Sequence record: PZ386974.1
Strand: one strand, 5' to 3'
DNA: 64,000 bases
Source: a phage
Translations under genes and position numbers: made by a program
The notes under the pieces: model-generated
What the model saw: only the letters and a program-made list of their open reading frames with translations
What the model was told of the DNA's origin: nothing
Database searches by the model: none
Part shown: positions 1,829 to 15,449 of the stretch, piece after piece
Layout of the letters: every line of letters starts with the position of its first letter
How positions within the stretch are numbered: the stretch's first letter is position 1

Positions 1829-3154
1829 TCAAAGTGCCTCCAAGTCTTTAGTGTACTCGGTCACAACATCAGTAGACTTCCAATACTCATTTTCTTCTTT
1901 CTTAGCTTTAGCTTCTTCTGCTAGTTTACGTGCTTCGTCGGAAGTGATATGGAAGATGTTAAGACCTACCAGTTTATCGACATGTTCTTTATACATTTCG
2001 ATTTGTGCTAGCTCTTCAGTCAAAGCTTTACGAGTCTTGCCCTGAATCACAATTTCACCTGTAATAACTTTTTTGATGAAGTGTGCCTTAGCAAAAGCCA
2101 GTTTAAATGCTTTTTCAGATTCAAGGATTTTGTTGTCAATACGTTTCTGAACGTAAGTCTTACGGACTTCAACAAAATCTTTGATTAAGTCCACTACGTT
2201 ATCGTAGACAGCTAATTTACCCTTTTCATTAATCACTGTGATGTTTTGAGAACGGCGTTCGATGAGACTAAAATCTTTCATGATTTTTTCATGACGTAGC
2301 TCTTCATCATCAGGAAGCGAGTACTCTTTACGGAACTTCACTTTAAACCCAAAGCCGTGTTCACCACAATCATCTTCCCAAGAGATTAGACCTTTGTCTT
2401 CCAACGGGTCAAGAACCTTACTCACATACGTTTCACGGTCGAATTTATATGGGATTTCAGTTATCTGCATTTGAGTGCGAGATGTGAACTTATATGTTCC
2501 GTGAATCTCATAACGCCCATCAACTTCATGTACTTCACCACGGAATTCCGGGAATTCAACTTTTGGCTTAGTGACATTTTTACCTTGAAGAGCTTGTAAT
2601 ACAGCCTTTTTGACTGATTTAAAACTATGAGGCAGAATATTTGTTGCGTAACCGGTTGCAATACCAGAAACACCATTCAAAAGAACTGTCGGAATAATAG
2701 GAAGATAGAATTTTGGTGGAATGTGTTCTTTATCTTCATGAGCTGGAGCATATTCAGTATCTTTATATACGTTATAGAAATTTTTACTTACACGAGCAAA
2801 AATATAACGAGATGCTGCAGCTTTTTGGACTGTTCTAGAACCAAAGTTGCCTTGGCCATCTAACAGTGGATAGTTGTTGTTCCATGTGTTAGCCATCAAT
2901 GCACCTGCATCTTGTGCAGAAGATTCACCATGGTGATAACCTAAATCTGCAACACCACCTGCAATTGACGCAAGTTTATGAAATTTTTCTTTATTACCAC
3001 GAGCCAAATCTAACGCACGATGAACCACAAAACGTTGAACCGGCTTAAATCCATCAATCATGTTTGGGATTGCACGGTTTTCAACGGTGTACATCGCATA
3101 TGCTAAGGCTTCGTTATCAATAATACTTTTTAGATTACGAGAATTCAATTGCAT
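1829..3154 (-). CDS. 52: DNA topoisomerase II medium subunit (GyrA-like)
   Basis: 441 aa; N-terminus MQLNSRNLKSIIDNEALAYAMYTVENRAIPN matches recalled T4 gp52. Confidence 0.9.
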   Translation of the reverse strand: MQLNSRNLKSIIDNEALAYAMYTVENRAIPNMIDGFKPVQRFVVHRALDLARGNKEKFHKLASIAGGVADLGYHHGESSAQDAGALMANTWNNNYPLLDGQGNFGSRTVQKAAASRYIFARVSKNFYNVYKDTEYAPAHEDKEHIPPKFYLPIIPTVLLNGVSGIATGYATNILPHSFKSVKKAVLQALQGKNVTKPKVEFPEFRGEVHEVDGRYEIHGTYKFTSRTQMQITEIPYKFDRETYVSKVLDPLEDKGLISWEDDCGEHGFGFKVKFRKEYSLPDDEELRHEKIMKDFSLIERRSQNITVINEKGKLAVYDNVVDLIKDFVEVRKTYVQKRIDNKILESEKAFKLAFAKAHFIKKVITGEIVIQGKTRKALTEELAQIEMYKEHVDKLVGLNIFHITSDEARKLAEEAKAKKEENEYWKSTDVVTEYTKDLEAL

Positions 3155-3158
3155 ATTT

Positions 3159-3299
3159 TCACCATATTAATGAACGAATAGCCATTATAACATCTGAAAT
3201 GAAAAGCACTACTTTGATTAGTCCAAACATCACACCATAGTACAGAACCGTAAGCAACAACAAGAGCCCGAAGGCTCCTGCTAAGATTTTCTTAATCAT
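3159..3299 (-). CDS. small hydrophobic peptide (46 aa), below track threshold
   Basis: ATG at 3299-3297; translation MIKKILAGAFGLLLLLTVLYYGV...; TAATG-coupled to upstream small ORF; position equivalent to T4 52.1/ac/stp region. Confidence 0.3.
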   Translation of the reverse strand: MIKKILAGAFGLLLLLTVLYYGVMFGLIKVVLFISDVIMAIRSLIW

Positions 3300-3445: not shown

Positions 3446-3497
3446 TTTAATTACCTCAAAAATAAATTAAAGGCCTATTAAGCTAGGCCCGTATAAA

Positions 3498-3944
3498 TTA
3501 GTAACTCTGCAGAATGAATTTGAAATTATCTGCCAGAAGACGGTTCATTTCAGTGAGTGTTTGATATTCTGATGTATGGTTGCGAGTGAATGCCAGAGCC
3601 AATTGTCCTTTACCATAACCAGTAGTCAGTGGTTTCATGTTCTTAGCTGCAACAAAGATTACATCATATTCAATATTGTTAGTGCCCATGGTACGGGCTA
3701 GTTGCGAACGGCCTTGACGAATGTGAGAAAGAATTGCATCCAACCCTTGTTTAGAACGTTGACGTCCTACAAAGAATCGTGCTGCTACTTGTCGCCAATC
3801 AGATGAACCTTTAACAAAGAAGTAAAAACCTTCGCGAGAACGAAACTCTTTAGAAACTTCAGAACCGTATTCGCCATTACGAACTACTGCAACAACTTCA
3901 CCACCAACTGCCAGAAGGTCTTTACGAGTTAAATATTTGGACAT
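3498..3944 (-). CDS. ndd: possible Ndd nucleoid-disruption protein (148 aa)
   Basis: Size and position (clockwise of 52) match T4 ndd; ATG with GAGGAA SD; identity not verified by alignment. Confidence 0.4.
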
Positions 3945-6569: not shown

Positions 6570-8783
6570 TTATTTGGCCGCTTCCACGGCCTTCATGAAT
6601 TTAACGATTTGAGCGACCTGTTCTTTAGAAAGAGTACCACGTCGTCCCATGTATTCTGACACAATATGATAATTGGTTTCAAATTCAATAACCATTTTAT
6701 CATCATTATCGTAAGCATTATCTTTAAGCTTATCGAAAATTTTAGCACACAATTCTAACTTCTTATTCAGATCTCTGTTAGTAGCACCTGAGAATCGATT
6801 CCATCCCCAACGATTATTTACTGTTGAAAGTTTTGCAAAATCTTTACTGATTTCTTTGTTCTTAGAGCTAAAATACTTACTAAGGAAGTTGAGCTCTTCA
6901 TTACGAGTAATATGATTCAAATAAGGCTGTGCTCTACGACTTGGTGATACATACTCATCATAATCTACTTTATCGATTAGCATAATATAGTCATTAATTG
7001 ATTTTTCAAACAAACATTCTACTTCACCAAGTTTACGAACTTTCTTAGCAATCTGTGGACGGACTACAGTGAACTCTTTAATACCTGACAAATCAGCAAT
7101 ACGGGTCAAGAAATTGGAGTCATAGTTCAACCAACCTTTATCTGCGTCAAGACATTCAGCATTAGAACGATTACGAACTATAGCATAACCTTGGATTTCA
7201 TCAGCTTCACTCGCCGGAATAAAGAGATCTTCTGATACCCAAACATCGTTTTCATTCTTAAAGAACCGATGAGCACTCGGGGATTTAGGACGAGGCCCAT
7301 TAGAACGAGTCTTGACTTCAATCCATGGCTTAACGATTTGTAAAAGCTCTGAAGTCTTGTACATGTTAATGTTGTCGCCATCAAAGATAACTTTAAGGCG
7401 TTCCAGAAGTTTCATTGCGTCTTCGTCTGTAGGGTCAACGAATAGTACGCTTTTACCAAAACCACGTGGGACTTTACCGGTTAATTTAACCTCGTCTTTA
7501 GACATTTCAATTGAATTAAGAGCTCGCATTAATGGAACACGTCCCTTAACGTCATCAATAACAATTTCAACGTTTTTAATGTTAATGCCAATCAGACTGT
7601 TAATTGAAATAGTTGCAGATGAGCTACCACTTTCACGAATACGACGAAGACGAGGGTCTTCAATGATATCGTATACGACGCCGAGATTACACCATTCGGG
7701 TCCCATTTTAAAACGTTTGTACAACTCAGAATAAGTTAGTTGTTCTTTAGAATATTTCAGAGATTCAATATTAGACCCAGCCTTTTCCATGTATTTGCGA
7801 GCGGTATAGCCAAGAGAATCAATTTCACGGAACACATGGCGCGGGTATTTACAATCAATCCATTTCTTAGAATCTTCAGCGAACAATTTAGCATCGATTT
7901 CTGCAACGCGTTTATGGATATTTGCTACTGTACGTTTATCAAATGACAATGCTTCACGAGACGGGGCTACATCTAGTTCACCCATAGGGAATTTAATATA
8001 AGCTGTAGTGCATCGCGTCATCATCCATGTTTGTTCTTTAATAACACTTCCGATTGGATATACAATACCACCATAAACAGCCATGATATTACCACGTTCA
8101 CCCCATGGAGCTTCCTTGGCCAAATATACATCGTCAAATTCAGGGAAGTATTTGATATCTTTAACACCGCGAACTTCTGCAATATCACCTAGAGGACGCA
8201 TAACATATGCAATTTCAGATGCGAACTTTTCAAAATCTTCTGGGTTAACCGGTACAACTACTTCTACACCCGTACGGTCATCAGGGCCCATCTTATCTAC
8301 GAAGGTTGGCTTAATCTGTGGACCACTGTCATCTTGATAAATTACATAACCACGAACTTCACCGTTGTGATAAGATGTAAGGTTAAACGTATCGGTATAT
8401 GCTAGTGGAGCTTTAGAGCCGAGTCCGAATCCACCAATGAAATCGTTACTCGATGTTTTAGTTGAAGCAAAATATGAGTTATAGATTCCTGGCTCTTCGT
8501 CATTACCTCGAATGGTGAAATCACTCATACCAGGACCAAAGTCTCGAACTACAAAACGCGGGTCTAAACGACCTGGAGCCTGAACAATAAACTTATCAGT
8601 GCAACCATTAAGAATTTGTCCATCGATACAGTTTGTGATTAATTCACGTACACAAGCCAATTCTTTGTTTGTATAAAGGTCATTAGACAAAATCTTATAA
8701 ACTTTGCTATTGCCTTGAATAGTAAATGCTGTGCTCTTACCGCCTGAACCAATAATCGTTTCTTTAGCCGTTTCAATAATCAT
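6570..8783 (-). CDS. rIIA: rIIA protein
   Basis: 737 aa; N-terminal region with DLYTNK...RELITN...PGRLDPRFV...DFGPGMS matches recalled T4 rIIA. Confidence 0.85.
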   Translation of the reverse strand: MIIETAKETIIGSGGKSTAFTIQGNSKVYKILSNDLYTNKELACVRELITNCIDGQILNGCTDKFIVQAPGRLDPRFVVRDFGPGMSDFTIRGNDEEPGIYNSYFASTKTSSNDFIGGFGLGSKAPLAYTDTFNLTSYHNGEVRGYVIYQDDSGPQIKPTFVDKMGPDDRTGVEVVVPVNPEDFEKFASEIAYVMRPLGDIAEVRGVKDIKYFPEFDDVYLAKEAPWGERGNIMAVYGGIVYPIGSVIKEQTWMMTRCTTAYIKFPMGELDVAPSREALSFDKRTVANIHKRVAEIDAKLFAEDSKKWIDCKYPRHVFREIDSLGYTARKYMEKAGSNIESLKYSKEQLTYSELYKRFKMGPEWCNLGVVYDIIEDPRLRRIRESGSSSATISINSLIGINIKNVEIVIDDVKGRVPLMRALNSIEMSKDEVKLTGKVPRGFGKSVLFVDPTDEDAMKLLERLKVIFDGDNINMYKTSELLQIVKPWIEVKTRSNGPRPKSPSAHRFFKNENDVWVSEDLFIPASEADEIQGYAIVRNRSNAECLDADKGWLNYDSNFLTRIADLSGIKEFTVVRPQIAKKVRKLGEVECLFEKSINDYIMLIDKVDYDEYVSPSRRAQPYLNHITRNEELNFLSKYFSSKNKEISKDFAKLSTVNNRWGWNRFSGATNRDLNKKLELCAKIFDKLKDNAYDNDDKMVIEFETNYHIVSEYMGRRGTLSKEQVAQIVKFMKAVEAAK

Positions 8784-8795
8784 ATTTTTCTCTCA

Positions 8796-8996
8796 TCACA
8801 AGTTACGTTTAAAAATTTCTGCTACTTCAAGAAGTTCTTCTTTAGTAGCTGTATCGGTTTGTATTTTATATCGAATTTCTTTAAAGCGTTCTTTAAAGGA
8901 CTCTGCTGACTCGATATCAAAAAATCTTTGGATAAGCCGGAATTCCCGGAGCACTGCTTTATCAAAAAGTTCCAAGTCCACGTTATATGTTCTCAT
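8796..8996 (-). CDS. hypothetical protein (66 aa; rIIA.1 position)
   Basis: ATG start; positional equivalent of T4 rIIA.1. Confidence 0.45.
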   Translation of the reverse strand: MRTYNVDLELFDKAVLREFRLIQRFFDIESAESFKERFKEIRYKIQTDTATKEELLEVAEIFKRNL

Positions 8997-10200: not shown

Positions 10201-10233
10201 ATTAAAATTAAAATGAAGCTCCCGAAGGAGCTT
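10201..10233 (-). terminator. intrinsic terminator, UUCG-tetraloop hairpin AAGCTCC/GGAGCTT plus U-rich tail
   Basis: Overlaps gene 39 stop codon. Confidence 0.5.
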
Positions 10234-12049
10234 AGGACATCCATTCTTTACGAAGTTCTGAATCATCACCCATCAACATTTCAAAGAGTTCTTTCCAATT
10301 TTCAGGAAGTTTAACTACGTCGTACACAGGGTTCTGAATCATTTCACGATATTCTGACTTTTCAAGGGAGCCTAATCCCTTGATGTATCGAATACTATGC
10401 TTAGGCAGTGTATATTTAACTTCTTCATACTCAGCTACAGTATAAAACCATTTTTGAGTTTTGCCAATTTGTGCAATAATTACAGGTGTTTTAACAAAGC
10501 GAATACGTCCTTGTTCAAACAATTCAGGCCAATTACTAAAGAAAGCAAGCAAAGCTGGATAAATGCTTCCAAGACCGTCATGATCGGCATCAGTCATAAT
10601 TGCAATATTACGATAGTTCGTATTCTCTGCCTTTTCACCAAGAATAAGACCTGTGATAGCACAGATATCAAAGAGCTCTTTGTTCTTCATCATATCAGCA
10701 TATGACATACCCCAGCTATTCATCACCTTACCACGTAATGGGAATCCACCATGTAGTTCACGGTCACGAACATCAATGAGATAACCAATTGCCGAATCAC
10801 CTTCTGTTAAGAACAATGTCGTATCTGCATCTTTACCACATTGGTTAGCTTTAATATGCTTATGAACCTTAGCTTTAGTTGCCTTTTTAGCTGCTTTAGT
10901 TTCTGCAGCCTTTTCTGCCGCCAATTTACGAGCTAATGCTGCTTCAACAATAGGCATAATCAAGGCTTCGTTTTTAAGAAGTGCCTGAGCAATTTTCTTA
11001 GCATCTAATTGGATATGATTACGAATATCACCATATGTTGACGTTAAACGTTCTTTAGTCTGAGAATCAAAACGCATGTTGCTCATGTCTCTAATAAACA
11101 TCAACATTGTGAGACATTCTTTAACACGAGCTTTAGTGACTTCAATACCCTTATATTTCTTTTTAATACCGGGCAAAAGATGTTCGCAGATATCATCCAT
11201 TACACATTCAACATGATGACCACCATTTTTAGTATGGATGTTATTCACATAAGTTAAATGACGGAAGCCATCTGGTGATGTTGTGAATGCTATAGAGACT
11301 TTATCATTTTCTTGAATGATGTTATCTTCGCCAAATTGTTTAGCAAATCGTTTAAAATTACCATCAACCTTTTTACCATTAAATGTGAACTTGATATCAG
11401 GATAAACGACTGCCAACGTTTGAAGTCGGTCTAAAGTAATATCTAAATAAACTTGAGATAAATTATGCTCTTCAAATGAAGAGAAATCAGGAGTGAAGAT
11501 TACTTTAGTGCCTTTACCTTTAGATTTCTTAGAAGACCATGATTTGTTTTCCATTCCGTTTGAACAGTTAACAGTGATTTCATTTTCGCCATCTGACGTG
11601 ATGCCTGTAAACAACGTAGAGAAGATATTAGTTAAACTACTCCCGACGCCGTTCATACCACCAGTCTTGCGTTCAGAGTCATCACCAAAGTTACCACCGG
11701 CCTTTGGAATAGTCCAGGCTGCTACAGGCCCAGGAATTTGTTCACCTGTTTGGTCTGTAACTAAACCTTGAGGAATACCACGTCCGTTATCTTCCACCGA
11801 AACTTGATTATTTTTAATTTGCACATCAATTTTATTTGCAAACTTAAATGATGTACGAATAGCTTCATCAACCGAGTTGTCAATAATCTCATCGATTAAT
11901 TTAACCAGACCAGGAACATATTCAACTTGCTGATATTTACCAAACAAAAAACGCTCATGTGCTTCTTTGGCCGAAGAACCAATATACATACCACTGCGTT
12001 TCTTAATATGTTCTACATCTGACAATACCTTAATTTCATTTTTAATCAT
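10232..12049 (-). CDS. 39: DNA topoisomerase II large subunit (GyrB-like), unsplit
   Basis: 605 aa single ORF; N-terminus MIKNEIKVLSDVEHIKKRSGMYIGS matches recalled T4 gp39; GAGGAGA SD. Confidence 0.9.
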   Translation of the reverse strand: MIKNEIKVLSDVEHIKKRSGMYIGSSAKEAHERFLFGKYQQVEYVPGLVKLIDEIIDNSVDEAIRTSFKFANKIDVQIKNNQVSVEDNGRGIPQGLVTDQTGEQIPGPVAAWTIPKAGGNFGDDSERKTGGMNGVGSSLTNIFSTLFTGITSDGENEITVNCSNGMENKSWSSKKSKGKGTKVIFTPDFSSFEEHNLSQVYLDITLDRLQTLAVVYPDIKFTFNGKKVDGNFKRFAKQFGEDNIIQENDKVSIAFTTSPDGFRHLTYVNNIHTKNGGHHVECVMDDICEHLLPGIKKKYKGIEVTKARVKECLTMLMFIRDMSNMRFDSQTKERLTSTYGDIRNHIQLDAKKIAQALLKNEALIMPIVEAALARKLAAEKAAETKAAKKATKAKVHKHIKANQCGKDADTTLFLTEGDSAIGYLIDVRDRELHGGFPLRGKVMNSWGMSYADMMKNKELFDICAITGLILGEKAENTNYRNIAIMTDADHDGLGSIYPALLAFFSNWPELFEQGRIRFVKTPVIIAQIGKTQKWFYTVAEYEEVKYTLPKHSIRYIKGLGSLEKSEYREMIQNPVYDVVKLPENWKELFEMLMGDDSELRKEWMS

Positions 12050-12090: not shown

Positions 12091-12112
12091 AAAGCAAAAA
12101 GGGCCGAAGCCC
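12091..12112 (-). terminator. intrinsic terminator, UUCG-tetraloop hairpin GGGC/GCCC plus UUUUU
   Basis: Between 39.1-position ORF and gene 39. Confidence 0.5.
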
Positions 12113-12535
12113 TTATTTAAATTTAATTTTCTGAAGTGCATCAATTGCAGCCAAACGCCCTTGTTCACTTTTAACTGTAATGACCACATCGCCTGATACG
12201 ATCACCGAACCATCAACAAATTCTATAGAGCCTTTTTTGAAATCGACAGCTGTATCTGGTTCCGGAACTTCTTCAAAGAATTTAAATTCTGCACCATAAA
12301 GCAGAATATCACCTTGCATACTAATGATTGTACGTCCAGGTCCATCGGTTTCAGCGGCAATCATTGAAACACCGTAACCAATCATCTCTTCTACAATAAA
12401 ATCTCTTGATAATAAAACTGTATGCAGAGTAGTGTTAAGACGTTTACCAGTTGTATTAAGAATTCTCAAGAAATTATCTTCTTGACCTTTGATAATACGA
12501 TATTTCTTACCAACTTCAAAACCTTTAAAAGCCAT
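12113..12535 (-). CDS. hypothetical protein (140 aa; 39.1 position)
   Basis: ATG start; followed by UUCG-loop terminator. Confidence 0.5.
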   Translation of the reverse strand: MAFKGFEVGKKYRIIKGQEDNFLRILNTTGKRLNTTLHTVLLSRDFIVEEMIGYGVSMIAAETDGPGRTIISMQGDILLYGAEFKFFEEVPEPDTAVDFKKGSIEFVDGSVIVSGDVVITVKSEQGRLAAIDALQKIKFK

Positions 12536-12537
12536 AA

Positions 12538-12717
12538 TTAACCCTTCTTAAGTAAGTCGTAAAAACCACCGTTCACATGTTTAGGAGCAGAAACCCGACG
12601 AGTAGACAGACGATGACATTCAGGGCAAACATCGTTTTCTCGTTCAGAAATCCTTTTAATTTTTTCATATTCATGGCCACAATCTTCAGATTGGCATTTA
12701 TAGTCGTATAACGGCAT
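12538..12717 (-). CDS. FmdB-like zinc-ribbon protein (59 aa), below track threshold
   Basis: Translation [59 protein letters not shown]; two CxxC pairs; TAATG-coupled to upstream ORF. Confidence 0.45.
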   Translation of the reverse strand: MPLYDYKCQSEDCGHEYEKIKRISERENDVCPECHRLSTRRVSAPKHVNGGFYDLLKKG

Positions 12718-13130
12718 TATTGTTCCTTAAAGTGAGCTTTCAACATTTGATACAAAGACCATGCCTGGTCATTATTTTCGATAGTAATCGTCATCACAGG
12801 AAATTCAGACAATTCGTCAAGTTCACCAGAATCTTGCTCTTCGGACGCTTGATATGGATTTCCAACTTCGTCAAAGAACTCTGCTTCATTCGTGGAGAGC
12901 CAGATAAAGTTTTCATCAAGGATATCACCACCTGTTGCGTATCCAACCATGCCAGTAGATGTCACAATTTTAGTAGGACGACCAAGATGGTCAACATCTA
13001 ATACTTTAAATGGTTCCATGCCAAGACGTCGTGCATAAATCCCATTATCAGTGTGGTCTTTAATAAACTCTTCTTGGGCACGTTTATCTATGAACTGATA
13101 CCATTTATTAACTTCAAATTTATTAGCCAT
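12717..13130 (-). CDS. hypothetical protein (137 aa; goF position)
   Basis: Track start is TTG; ATG at 13130 with GGAAGGAA SD. Confidence 0.5.
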
Positions 13131-13357
13131 TAGTAAGTTTCCTTCCAATAAGTTGTGCCGTTTTCAGTGATTTCACGGAAGATACCATAGATAGGCATTT
13201 CATCGCCGAGTTTTTCGTAAACGTAAACCACTTCGGTGTAGCATAAAAATTCGGTCCAGTTTTTCTGTACAACAACTAAATCAGGATTAAACAGAACATC
13301 TTCAAACTCATCAATGTTTGAATCAGTAGTTACGTTTTTAATGATTTGACGTTTCAT
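13130..13357 (-). CDS. hypothetical protein (75 aa; cef position)
   Basis: Track start at 13402 lies inside promoter element; ATG at 13357 with AGGAGA SD. Confidence 0.4.
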
Positions 13358-13998: not shown

Positions 13999-14418
13999 TT
14001 ATGCGAAAGCCGCTGGGCTATATTTTTTAATTTGGAATTCAGGAACTACCATGAACTGTCCAGCAAAAACAATATTGTAGAGCTTGACGCCATCTTCTAT
14101 CCAACGGTCGCTAATAAATCCGGCGATTTGCTTAGTTTTCCATGGCGTTCCATCAGTTGCCGCAGCAATAGTGAATTCATGGTCTTTTTCAACAGAAACT
14201 GATCTGCATAGTCCCCATTTGAACGCACGTTCTTCTGGCTCAATGAACTGGCTTGAGACGTAGCCAATATTACCATTGGCATCACGAACTTTAACTTGGT
14301 TACGACCAAAAACCGGATCACTCACAGAAAGAACTTCAACCAACTTCCCGGCAACTTTAGAGCGAGAAGCAACAGATACATATACGTAATCACCTGTAGA
14401 GAGATTTACAATATTCAT
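13999..14418 (-). CDS. hypothetical protein, tandem paralog family member A (139 aa)
   Basis: Shares C-terminal motif GFISDxWIEDGxKLYNIVFxGxF with next two ORFs. Confidence 0.5.
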   Translation of the reverse strand: MNIVNLSTGDYVYVSVASRSKVAGKLVEVLSVSDPVFGRNQVKVRDANGNIGYVSSQFIEPEERAFKWGLCRSVSVEKDHEFTIAAATDGTPWKTKQIAGFISDRWIEDGVKLYNIVFAGQFMVVPEFQIKKYSPAAFA

Positions 14419-14427
14419 AATAATTCC

Positions 14428-14892
14428 TTAAGCTTTACGAGGAGACACATAGCGAGTGATTTCAGATTCTTTAACAACTCGGAAGTCACCTAAGAATACG
14501 ATATTGTATAACTTTTCACCATCTTCAACCCATTGGTCACTAATGAAGCCACACATAGTATCAGTTTTGCTTGGATAACCGTATTCATCGATGAAGTCAA
14601 ATTCTTTATCGGTTATAAATTCAACGCCTTTGCAAAGGGCCCATTTGAACTGTGTAGTAGGCTCAACGATATCGCTTGAAGCAAAGTGGGCACTTACACG
14701 AGTTTCCAAGAATTTAGGACTTACATAGGCGAACTGAGTTTCAGTTTTTCCAGAACTAGGAATGATTCGAACTTTAACTTCTTTAATACGTCCCATGCCA
14801 TTTGTGCGAAGTCCGACAACTTCAACCAGACGACCTGCGGCTTTAGAACGGGATGCAGTTGATACACGCTTAATTTCACCAATATTAATCAT
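14428..14892 (-). CDS. hypothetical protein, tandem paralog family member B (154 aa)
   Basis: Start moved to ATG at 14892 by alignment with paralog A (MINIGEIKRVSTASRSKAAGRLVEV); track start lies in promoter element. Confidence 0.5.
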   Translation of the reverse strand: MINIGEIKRVSTASRSKAAGRLVEVVGLRTNGMGRIKEVKVRIIPSSGKTETQFAYVSPKFLETRVSAHFASSDIVEPTTQFKWALCKGVEFITDKEFDFIDEYGYPSKTDTMCGFISDQWVEDGEKLYNIVFLGDFRVVKESEITRYVSPRKA

Positions 14893-14923
14893 ATTTTTTC
14901 TCTCTTTGTTTAAATTGAATTCA

Positions 14924-14951
14924 TTATACTCCATCCATCCTTGGATGTACA
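14924..14951 (-). promoter_or_regulatory. early-type promoter cassette variant (TGTACA ... TATAAT)
   Basis: Upstream of paralog B; overlaps track-predicted N-terminal extension. Confidence 0.4.
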
Positions 14952-14954
14952 ACA

Positions 14955-15449
14955 TTAATTTAGAATATTAACCATAGCACTACGTGGAACTACACTAAAA
15001 TCACCTGCATGAACAACGTTCAGAAGTTCAACACCGTCTTCAATCCACTGATCAGTTACCCATCCACTCACTGGACCTGCGAACGGACGTCGAATTGAAA
15101 CAGCTTTACACAACAAATCAGTAGGCTCAATAGGCTTAATCAGAGTACCGTACATACAAGCGATATCCATATCAATACAGATGTCTTTAACGGGTTCTAC
15201 TTCTTCAATCAACAGTTCAAAGTCAGTGCTTGGAATGGCGGTAGTAGAAATTGTACCGTGTGAATTTTTAATTTCTAAGAATAACCAAGGGCCTTCAGCT
15301 TGTTTGATGAAGTTAACAATAGTGAAACTATTACCTTGAGTGGCACCTAAAATTTCACAAAACTTTTCATAAGCTCGCACTGAAGCACCGTACCAGTTGA
15401 TTTGTTTTTCGTCTTTCATGATGTAAGTAGCCGTAGTATTGATGTTCAT
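14955..15449 (-). CDS. hypothetical protein, tandem paralog family member C (164 aa)
   Basis: C-terminal motif WVTDQWIEDGVELLNVVHAGDF shared with paralogs A/B. Confidence 0.5.
   Translation of the reverse strand: MNINTTATYIMKDEKQINWYGASVRAYEKFCEILGATQGNSFTIVNFIKQAEGPWLFLEIKNSHGTISTTAIPSTDFELLIEEVEPVKDICIDMDIACMYGTLIKPIEPTDLLCKAVSIRRPFAGPVSGWVTDQWIEDGVELLNVVHAGDFSVVPRSAMVNILN

Follow-up and report, generated by a model that had tools for sequence, protein, structure and literature searches.

The open reading frame (ORF) at positions 12538..12717, on the minus strand of a 64,000-nucleotide stretch of phage DNA (PZ386974.1; the whole of that stretch is referred to below as 'the window'), is by sequence identity and position the T4-type gene 39.2 (NwgI) in its RB69-type allele. 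Its product, a zinc ribbon followed by a C-terminal tail, probably acts on the host chaperonin GroEL in the manner described for the T4 ortholog. The identity of the gene, its family, the selection acting on it, its synteny and the predicted fold of its product come from the analysis presented here, and the effect on GroEL from the published literature cited below. The gene is already known, and the window adds nothing new about it; the preliminary description of this DNA, which was made from its letters, had not recognised the ORF as a named phage gene that had been studied earlier.

The DNA of the window is 97–98.5% identical to that of RB69-like phages (genus Mosigvirus), and the product of the ORF is 100% identical to RB69 RB69p006. 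T-even (Tequatrovirus-type) homologs share 81–93% identity with it, the T4 reference protein 73% over its 45 annotated residues, and the homolog of phage JSE (RB49-like, Krischvirus), which is encoded directly upstream of gene 39, 46%. The order of genes in the window is that of RB69; T4 carries goF-39.2-39.1-39 and JSE carries dexA-39.2-39, and the record of phage PP01 gives its homolog the name 39.2. It is the identity with RB69p006, together with the shared position beside gene 39 in RB69, T4 and JSE, that assigns the ORF to gene 39.2. T4 Gp39.2/NwgI and its RB69 ortholog resemble the window gene in position, length class (58–59 amino acids), cysteine pattern and tail, and we found no difference of substance between the window and the RB69 and T4 versions; the differences that do exist are a changed goF stop codon and a downstream gene that is not the 39.1 of T4.

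The T4 reference genome (locus L002, NC_000866.4, positions 3703–3840; compared with window positions 12580–12600) annotates gene 39.2 as 45 amino acids, apparently truncated by a single extra base. The reference contains one additional T, reading GCTTCCTAAG where the window, RB69 and T4_ev240 read GC-TCCTAA, and this places the conserved tail (PKHGNNGFYDLLKG) in another frame. Removal of the extra T yields a product of exactly 58 amino acids, which is the length given by its authors in the account of PMC5153855. The extra base probably reflects an error of sequencing or annotation; failing that, it would be a frameshift peculiar to the strain.

The gene, the parts of its product and the variant homologs discussed below are located as follows.

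12538..12717, minus strand: gene 39.2 (NwgI) coding sequence, 59 codons plus a TAA stop (12540..12538), from the ORF list and its translation
12679..12696, minus strand: predicted first zinc knuckle, C8-x4-C13 (codons 8–13), with C8 and C13 invariant in 18 unique T-even coding sequences
12616..12627, minus strand: predicted second zinc knuckle, C31-P-E-C34; among 30 family members, C34 never varies and C31 is kept in at least 90%
12550..12591, minus strand: C-terminal tail S43–L56 (SAPKHVNGGFYDLL), predicted to be flexible, with residues 43–56 invariant in 18 unique T-even coding sequences
3001–3174 of locus L003 (phage JSE), and P0013, P0017, P0030 and P0038: homologs with C-x-x-H-G in the first knuckle

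The ORF runs from an ATG at 12717..12715 to its terminal TAA and encodes a product of 59 residues (6.9 kDa, pI 7.7) that begins MPLYDYKC and ends GGFYDLLKKG. The preliminary description had reported a 59-residue ORF with this N-terminus at exactly these positions; it did not name the strand, which is the minus strand, and translation of the plus strand over 12538..12717 gives only stops. The length of the ORF is by itself no evidence for a gene, since the window contains 158 ATG-initiated ORFs of at least 59 amino acids in its six frames. The product does, in addition, match two family profiles above their curated cut-offs: PF09723 (Zn_ribbon_8) with 49.3 bits (cut-off 34.4, E = 5e-13), where residues 1–42 align to profile positions 1–40 of 41, and TIGR02605 ('FmdB family zinc ribbon protein') with 48 bits (cut-off 31.3, E = 9e-13), where residues 1–44 align to profile positions 1–42 of 52. 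It also matches phrog_1076. An HMM search of this kind had been proposed in the preliminary description, and its assignment of the ORF to the FmdB-type zinc-ribbon family is confirmed by matches that align from the first residue.

Comparison of the gene with its T-even homologs (81–93% protein identity) gave dN/dS ratios of 0.03–0.11, with saturated synonymous sites (pS of 0.73–0.85, pN of 0.04–0.10) and 25–30 synonymous as against 11–14 non-synonymous differences. Across 18 unique T-even coding sequences the four cysteines and residues 43–56 are invariant while their codons vary. Homologs were found by tblastn in 956 phage records, and the possibility, raised in the preliminary description, that relatives might lack the ORF clearly does not hold; the ORF is annotated in most public records of near-identical phages and left out of a few (such as MH837626.1). 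A word-indexed homolog search with this short query returned only 8 candidates, and an exhaustive HMMER search 252 representatives at E <= 1e-3. From the profile matches above curated cut-offs, the low dN/dS and the invariant cysteines and tail, we conclude that the ORF is a genuine gene under strong purifying selection.

The N-terminal signature of the family, M-P-x-Y-x-[YF]-x-C, is present in the product at its initiator methionine; in an alignment of 30 members, M1 and C8 do not vary, and conservation of P2, Y4 and Y6 reaches at least 90%. The preliminary description had seen two CxxC pairs in the protein. The second is indeed of that form (C31-P-E-C34), but the first reads C8-QSED-C13, which is a Cx4C arrangement, and is followed by H15 (12675..12673). 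The literal CxxC motif thus occurs only once (as CPEC), although four potential ligands are present. Other family members that score above threshold also deviate from it (CxC, Cx4C, CxxH), and among relatives the first knuckle varies in its second ligand (CxC, CxxC, Cx4C or CxxH). In the RB49-like homologs listed above the first knuckle lacks the second cysteine, its sequence being C-x-x-H-G (for example MPLYDYSCEEHGQF), a pattern in which either a histidine would replace the cysteine as ligand or zinc binding would not extend to the whole sub-family.

The C-terminal region carries a motif of its own, SAPxx[VI][NH]GGFYD, which is common to 14–15 short relatives in a 50%-identity library and appears here as SAPKHVNGGFYD; apparently it is a variant of the KGxGFY/GGGW motif found more generally in the FmdB family. 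The 39.2 product lacks the C-terminal extension, rich in serine or of low complexity, to which the TIGRFAM name alludes with 'SSSS'. Such a tail is frequent in the family, not universal, and its absence is no bar to membership.

An AlphaFold2 model of the product, computed with a 30-sequence alignment as input, has pLDDT values of about 83–85 over residues 1–40 and of 52–54 over residues 41–59. Strands are placed at residues 3–8, 16–20, 28–30 and 37–40, in the layout of a zinc ribbon with the cysteine pairs at both hairpin turns. Residues 1–42 probably form a four-stranded zinc ribbon with one zinc ion bound by C8, C13, C31 and C34, a ligation that we infer only from the invariant cysteines and the predicted topology of the ribbon. 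No solved structure of the family, alone or in a complex, was detectable by sequence in the PDB. The tandem C2H2 fingers that were the top PDB matches to the family profile were rejected as an artefact, caused by a YKCPECGK motif lying across two fingers and not by homology. A Foldseek search of the model against the PDB returned nothing significant (best E = 0.5); its best matches, the zinc ribbons of RbpA, YdjO, MCM and aRF1, have the same generic four-stranded topology but E-values of at least 0.5, TM scores of about 0.4–0.5 and no sequence similarity, and resemble the 39.2 product in fold class only. A lead from the YdjO-SigA and RbpA matches was dropped, as we found neither a sequence relation to 39.2 nor a paper.

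On the minus strand of the window, gene 39.2 is part of the order cef-goF-39.2-ORF005-hairpin-39, whose elements are as follows.

13130..13357, minus strand: cef (modifier of suppressor tRNAs), matching PF24050 T4_Cef (E = 6e-34) and phrog_1354, first in the block
12717..13130, minus strand: goF-like gene, 137 amino acids, matching phrog_622 (E = 8e-40) and goF PHROGs; corresponding to RB69 goF (RB69p007)
12723..12728, minus strand: Shine-Dalgarno-like AAGGAA, 5 nucleotides upstream of the 39.2 ATG and within the 3' end of goF
12715..12719, minus strand: TAATG stop/start overlap of goF and 39.2 by 1 nucleotide, in the window and in metagenomic locus L005
12113..12535, minus strand: RB69p005-like gene (ORF005), 140 amino acids, matching phrog_622 (E = 2e-19) and so annotated in RB69
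12091..12114, minus strand: GC-rich hairpin with a UUCG loop, and T-run (AAGGGCTTCGGCCCTT TTTGCTTT), from the terminator scan
10232..12049, minus strand: topoisomerase gene 39

The junctions within the block are TAATG, TAATG and TAA-TT-ATG. At the first, the stop codon of cef overlaps the ATG of goF (13130); at the second, the goF-like TAA (12719..12717) shares its last A with the start codon of 39.2, in agreement with the preliminary description; and at the third, the ATG of ORF005 lies 2 nucleotides past the 39.2 stop and is preceded by AAGAAGGG. Such tight packing of genes is common in the early regions of T4. The corresponding junction of goF and 39.2 in RB69 is GGAATAATAATG, in which the goF TAA is followed by 2 nucleotides and then the ATG (TAA-TA-ATG), and RB69 and most relatives have a TAA, 1–2 nucleotides and an ATG at this point. 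The window and metagenomic locus L005 read GGAACAATAATG instead. A T-to-C change (window positions 12715–12722 on the minus strand, compared with RB69 positions 3493–3503 in locus L001) has turned the goF stop of RB69 from TAA to CAA, with the result that goF is one codon longer (..FKEQ) and ends at the following TAA, the one that overlaps the 39.2 ATG. By this comparison the TAATG overlap is specific to a sub-lineage and is not conserved. The coupling of the gene to its neighbours, as put forward in the preliminary description, therefore stands as regards the tight packing and the overlap in this phage, and not as a conserved arrangement. The AAGGAA sequence upstream of 39.2 is kept in all T-even relatives examined, and because of this conservation, independent initiation of 39.2 appears at least as likely as termination-reinitiation.

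The hairpin at 12091–12114 has a perfect 6-bp stem, a UUCG tetraloop and a T-run (AAGGGCTTCGGCCCTTTTTGCTTT), and can be read as a hairpin on both strands; a 'terminator' feature is annotated at the equivalent position in several relatives. It is likely to be a terminator or an RNA-stability hairpin that marks the end of the block from cef to ORF005, ahead of gene 39. With 9 sigma-70 promoter-like sites against 7.2 ± 2.8 in shuffled sequences, the block shows no excess of such sites, and we claim no promoter. Neither 39.2 nor its neighbours matched a PADLOC defence model. The genes on either side of 39.2 in RB69-type phages, goF and ORF005, are distant paralogs of each other: both match phrog_622 and goF PHROGs, and a pairwise alignment over their first 100 residues shows 30% identity (E = 0.03). 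T4 differs in having an unrelated, signal-peptide-like ORF downstream, in place of the ORF005 paralog. Elsewhere in the window, three tandem ORFs on the minus strand (13999–14418, 14428–14955 and 14955–15449; 139, 175 and 164 amino acids) share the C-terminal pattern GF[IV][ST]D[QR]W[IV]EDG.[KE]L.N[IV]V..G.F.VV and are apparently tandem MotB-like paralogs. The last of them corresponds to two RB69 ORFs, RB69p012 (29 amino acids) and motB.1, and in the window it may start elsewhere or have another extent.

The function assigned to the gene comes from work on T4-type phages. In PMC5153855, the senior author of the original report describes the 58-amino-acid peptide encoded by T4 39.2 as modulating GroES/GroEL in a subtle way; evidence from genetics and biochemistry is said to suggest that Gp39.2 moves GroEL towards an open conformation capable of binding the co-chaperonins of host and phage; and specific groEL mutant hosts are described as blocking a T4 39.2 deletion completely. 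The corresponding passage from an independent group (PMC4396842) gives the same account of Gp39.2 on GroEL, and both citing papers (PMC5153855, PMC4396842) attribute the report of this effect to Ang and Georgopoulos (Genetics 2012).

Nothing in the sequence of 39.2 itself predicts GroEL binding. In the selection carried out by Ang and Georgopoulos, the gene first isolated was reportedly 39.2 of RB69, the product of which is identical to the protein encoded here, and the homologs of T4, RB43 and RB49 are said to behave alike. Expression of 39.2 reportedly suppresses temperature-sensitive alleles of groEL and groES in an allele-specific manner, and its over-production is said to be lethal. These published effects are reported to come from plasmid expression and mutant groEL/groES hosts, not from wild-type hosts.

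In T4-type phages, GroEL and a phage co-chaperonin are needed for folding of the major capsid protein. As the cited work on T4 suggests, Gp39.2 would shift host GroEL to an open form that is receptive to either GroES or the phage co-chaperonin, and would thereby keep GroEL-dependent folding going on hosts whose GroEL is sub-optimal. Folding of the capsid protein would presumably be among the tasks sustained in this way, and a bias of GroEL towards a form that accepts co-chaperonins could widen the range of hosts in which capsid folding succeeds. The flexible, conserved tail (residues 43–59, SAPKHVNGGFYDLL) may be the element that contacts GroEL, as far as we can infer; its GGFYDLL resembles the GGIVL of the GroES mobile loop.

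T4-type phages need GroEL plus a phage co-chaperonin. The co-chaperonins T4 gp31 and RB49 CocO and host GroES act on the same host machine as Gp39.2, and all of these factors bear on whether phage proteins can be folded by GroEL. They have no homology to Gp39.2, however, which is a monomer-sized zinc ribbon and is described as a modulator of conformation and not as a lid. With GroES and GroEL as queries, tblastn gave no match in the window or the viral loci.

We considered it unlikely, though not negligibly so, that Gp39.2 is instead a zinc- or thiol-based adaptor of another host machine (ribosome, protease or redox), with the GroEL phenotypes being secondary and arising, for instance, via altered proteostasis or heat-shock induction. 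The FmdB family includes some selenoproteins that carry CxxU instead of CxxC, an exchange that has been taken as a hint of thiol redox activity, and a gene of the family with an essential domain is on record from a Burkholderia Tn-seq study. The product also has a weak likeness to the ribosomal zinc ribbons bL31 and eL43 (E = 0.03–0.5), but these similarities are far from significant. The lethality reported for over-production would suggest a potent interaction, and not necessarily one with GroEL; the suppression of groEL and groES alleles is, on the other hand, reportedly allele-specific, which is unfavourable to an indirect effect. Both biochemical and genetic evidence is moreover cited for an effect on the conformation of GroEL itself (PMC5153855). 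An action on GroEL is the reading that we prefer.

Less probable still is that the product is an FmdB-like transcriptional regulator, which would bind DNA or RNA polymerase and control phage or host genes. RefSeq and PHROGs do label it as an 'FmdB-like transcriptional regulator', it sits among early-region genes for host RNA functions (goF, cef and motB), and its best fold matches, none of them significant, include RbpA and YdjO, which bind RNA polymerase (E = 0.5–0.7). Neither of these two proteins is related to it in sequence, however, and the product, only 59 amino acids long and with a nearly neutral pI of 7.7, shows no DNA-binding domain that we could recognise. The family is entered as 'uncharacterized' in COG2331, and in the literature that mentions it we found neither a mechanism nor a demonstrated regulatory function. 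Published genetics points to GroEL (PMC5153855, PMC4396842). The preliminary description had also called these zinc ribbons 'regulatory', a label that derives from the name of the FmdB family; we found no experimental support for it, and the phenotype published for T4 39.2 is modulation of GroEL/GroES. That description was right about the family and probably wrong in the function it implied. The reading of 12538..12717 as a chance ORF within an AT-rich intergenic stretch, coding for nothing, could draw on the abundance of short ORFs in the window (158, as above) and on deposited genomes that leave 39.2 unannotated (MH837626.1 among them), but is refuted by the Pfam and TIGR scores and the dN/dS ratios under saturated synonymous change, and has against it also the cysteines and tail invariant in 18 distinct coding sequences, the conserved Shine-Dalgarno sequence, the homologs in 956 phage records and the deletion phenotype published for T4.

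The 39.2 product shares with the FmdB family at large (PF09723, TIGR02605 CxxC_CxxC_SSSS, COG2331) the MPxYxYxC signature at residue 1 and a CPxC second knuckle, and its C-terminal GGFY corresponds approximately to the KGxGFY/GGGW motif of the family. It differs in its first knuckle, which is Cx4C and not CxxC, in having no serine-rich tail, and in its own SAPxx[VI][NH]GGFYD motif. It is, furthermore, encoded by a phage and has a reported GroEL phenotype, whereas the cellular FmdB family has no established function in the literature that we found on it. A phenotype, namely the one on GroEL, may have been described for no FmdB/Zn_ribbon_8 member other than Gp39.2.

An extension of this reading to the whole cellular FmdB family (COG2331), under which its members would be small chaperonin modulators, and not regulators, acting via a shared flexible G-G-[FW]-[YF] tail, seems to us improbable. 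That tail resembles the A-G-G-I-V-L segment of the GroES mobile loop, which docks on the apical domain of GroEL. Among 16 cellular (bacterial) loci obtained by a single-protein scan, linkage of FmdB-family genes to groES/groEL was seen in 1, and there the genes are not adjacent. In that locus (L086, a Candidatus Acidiferrales MAG; positions 8666–8971 and 11158–11445), a 101-amino-acid FmdB-family gene with a Ser/Lys-rich tail lies about 2.2–2.4 kb from a groES-like gene, with an opposite-strand ORF and a phosphatase-like gene between them and no groEL beside the stand-alone groES-like gene. At 1 of 16 loci this proximity is not above chance, and we rejected it as evidence of a chaperonin link and judged it a coincidence.

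For the window itself these results are of little significance, since 39.2 already has a name, a published phenotype and an annotation in most related genomes. The widespread label 'FmdB-like transcriptional regulator' probably misleads in the case of 39.2, for which 'GroEL modulator Gp39.2/NwgI' would be a better name. For the family, which is large and consists of uncharacterised bacterial zinc-ribbon micro-proteins, Gp39.2 represents a rare functional foothold.
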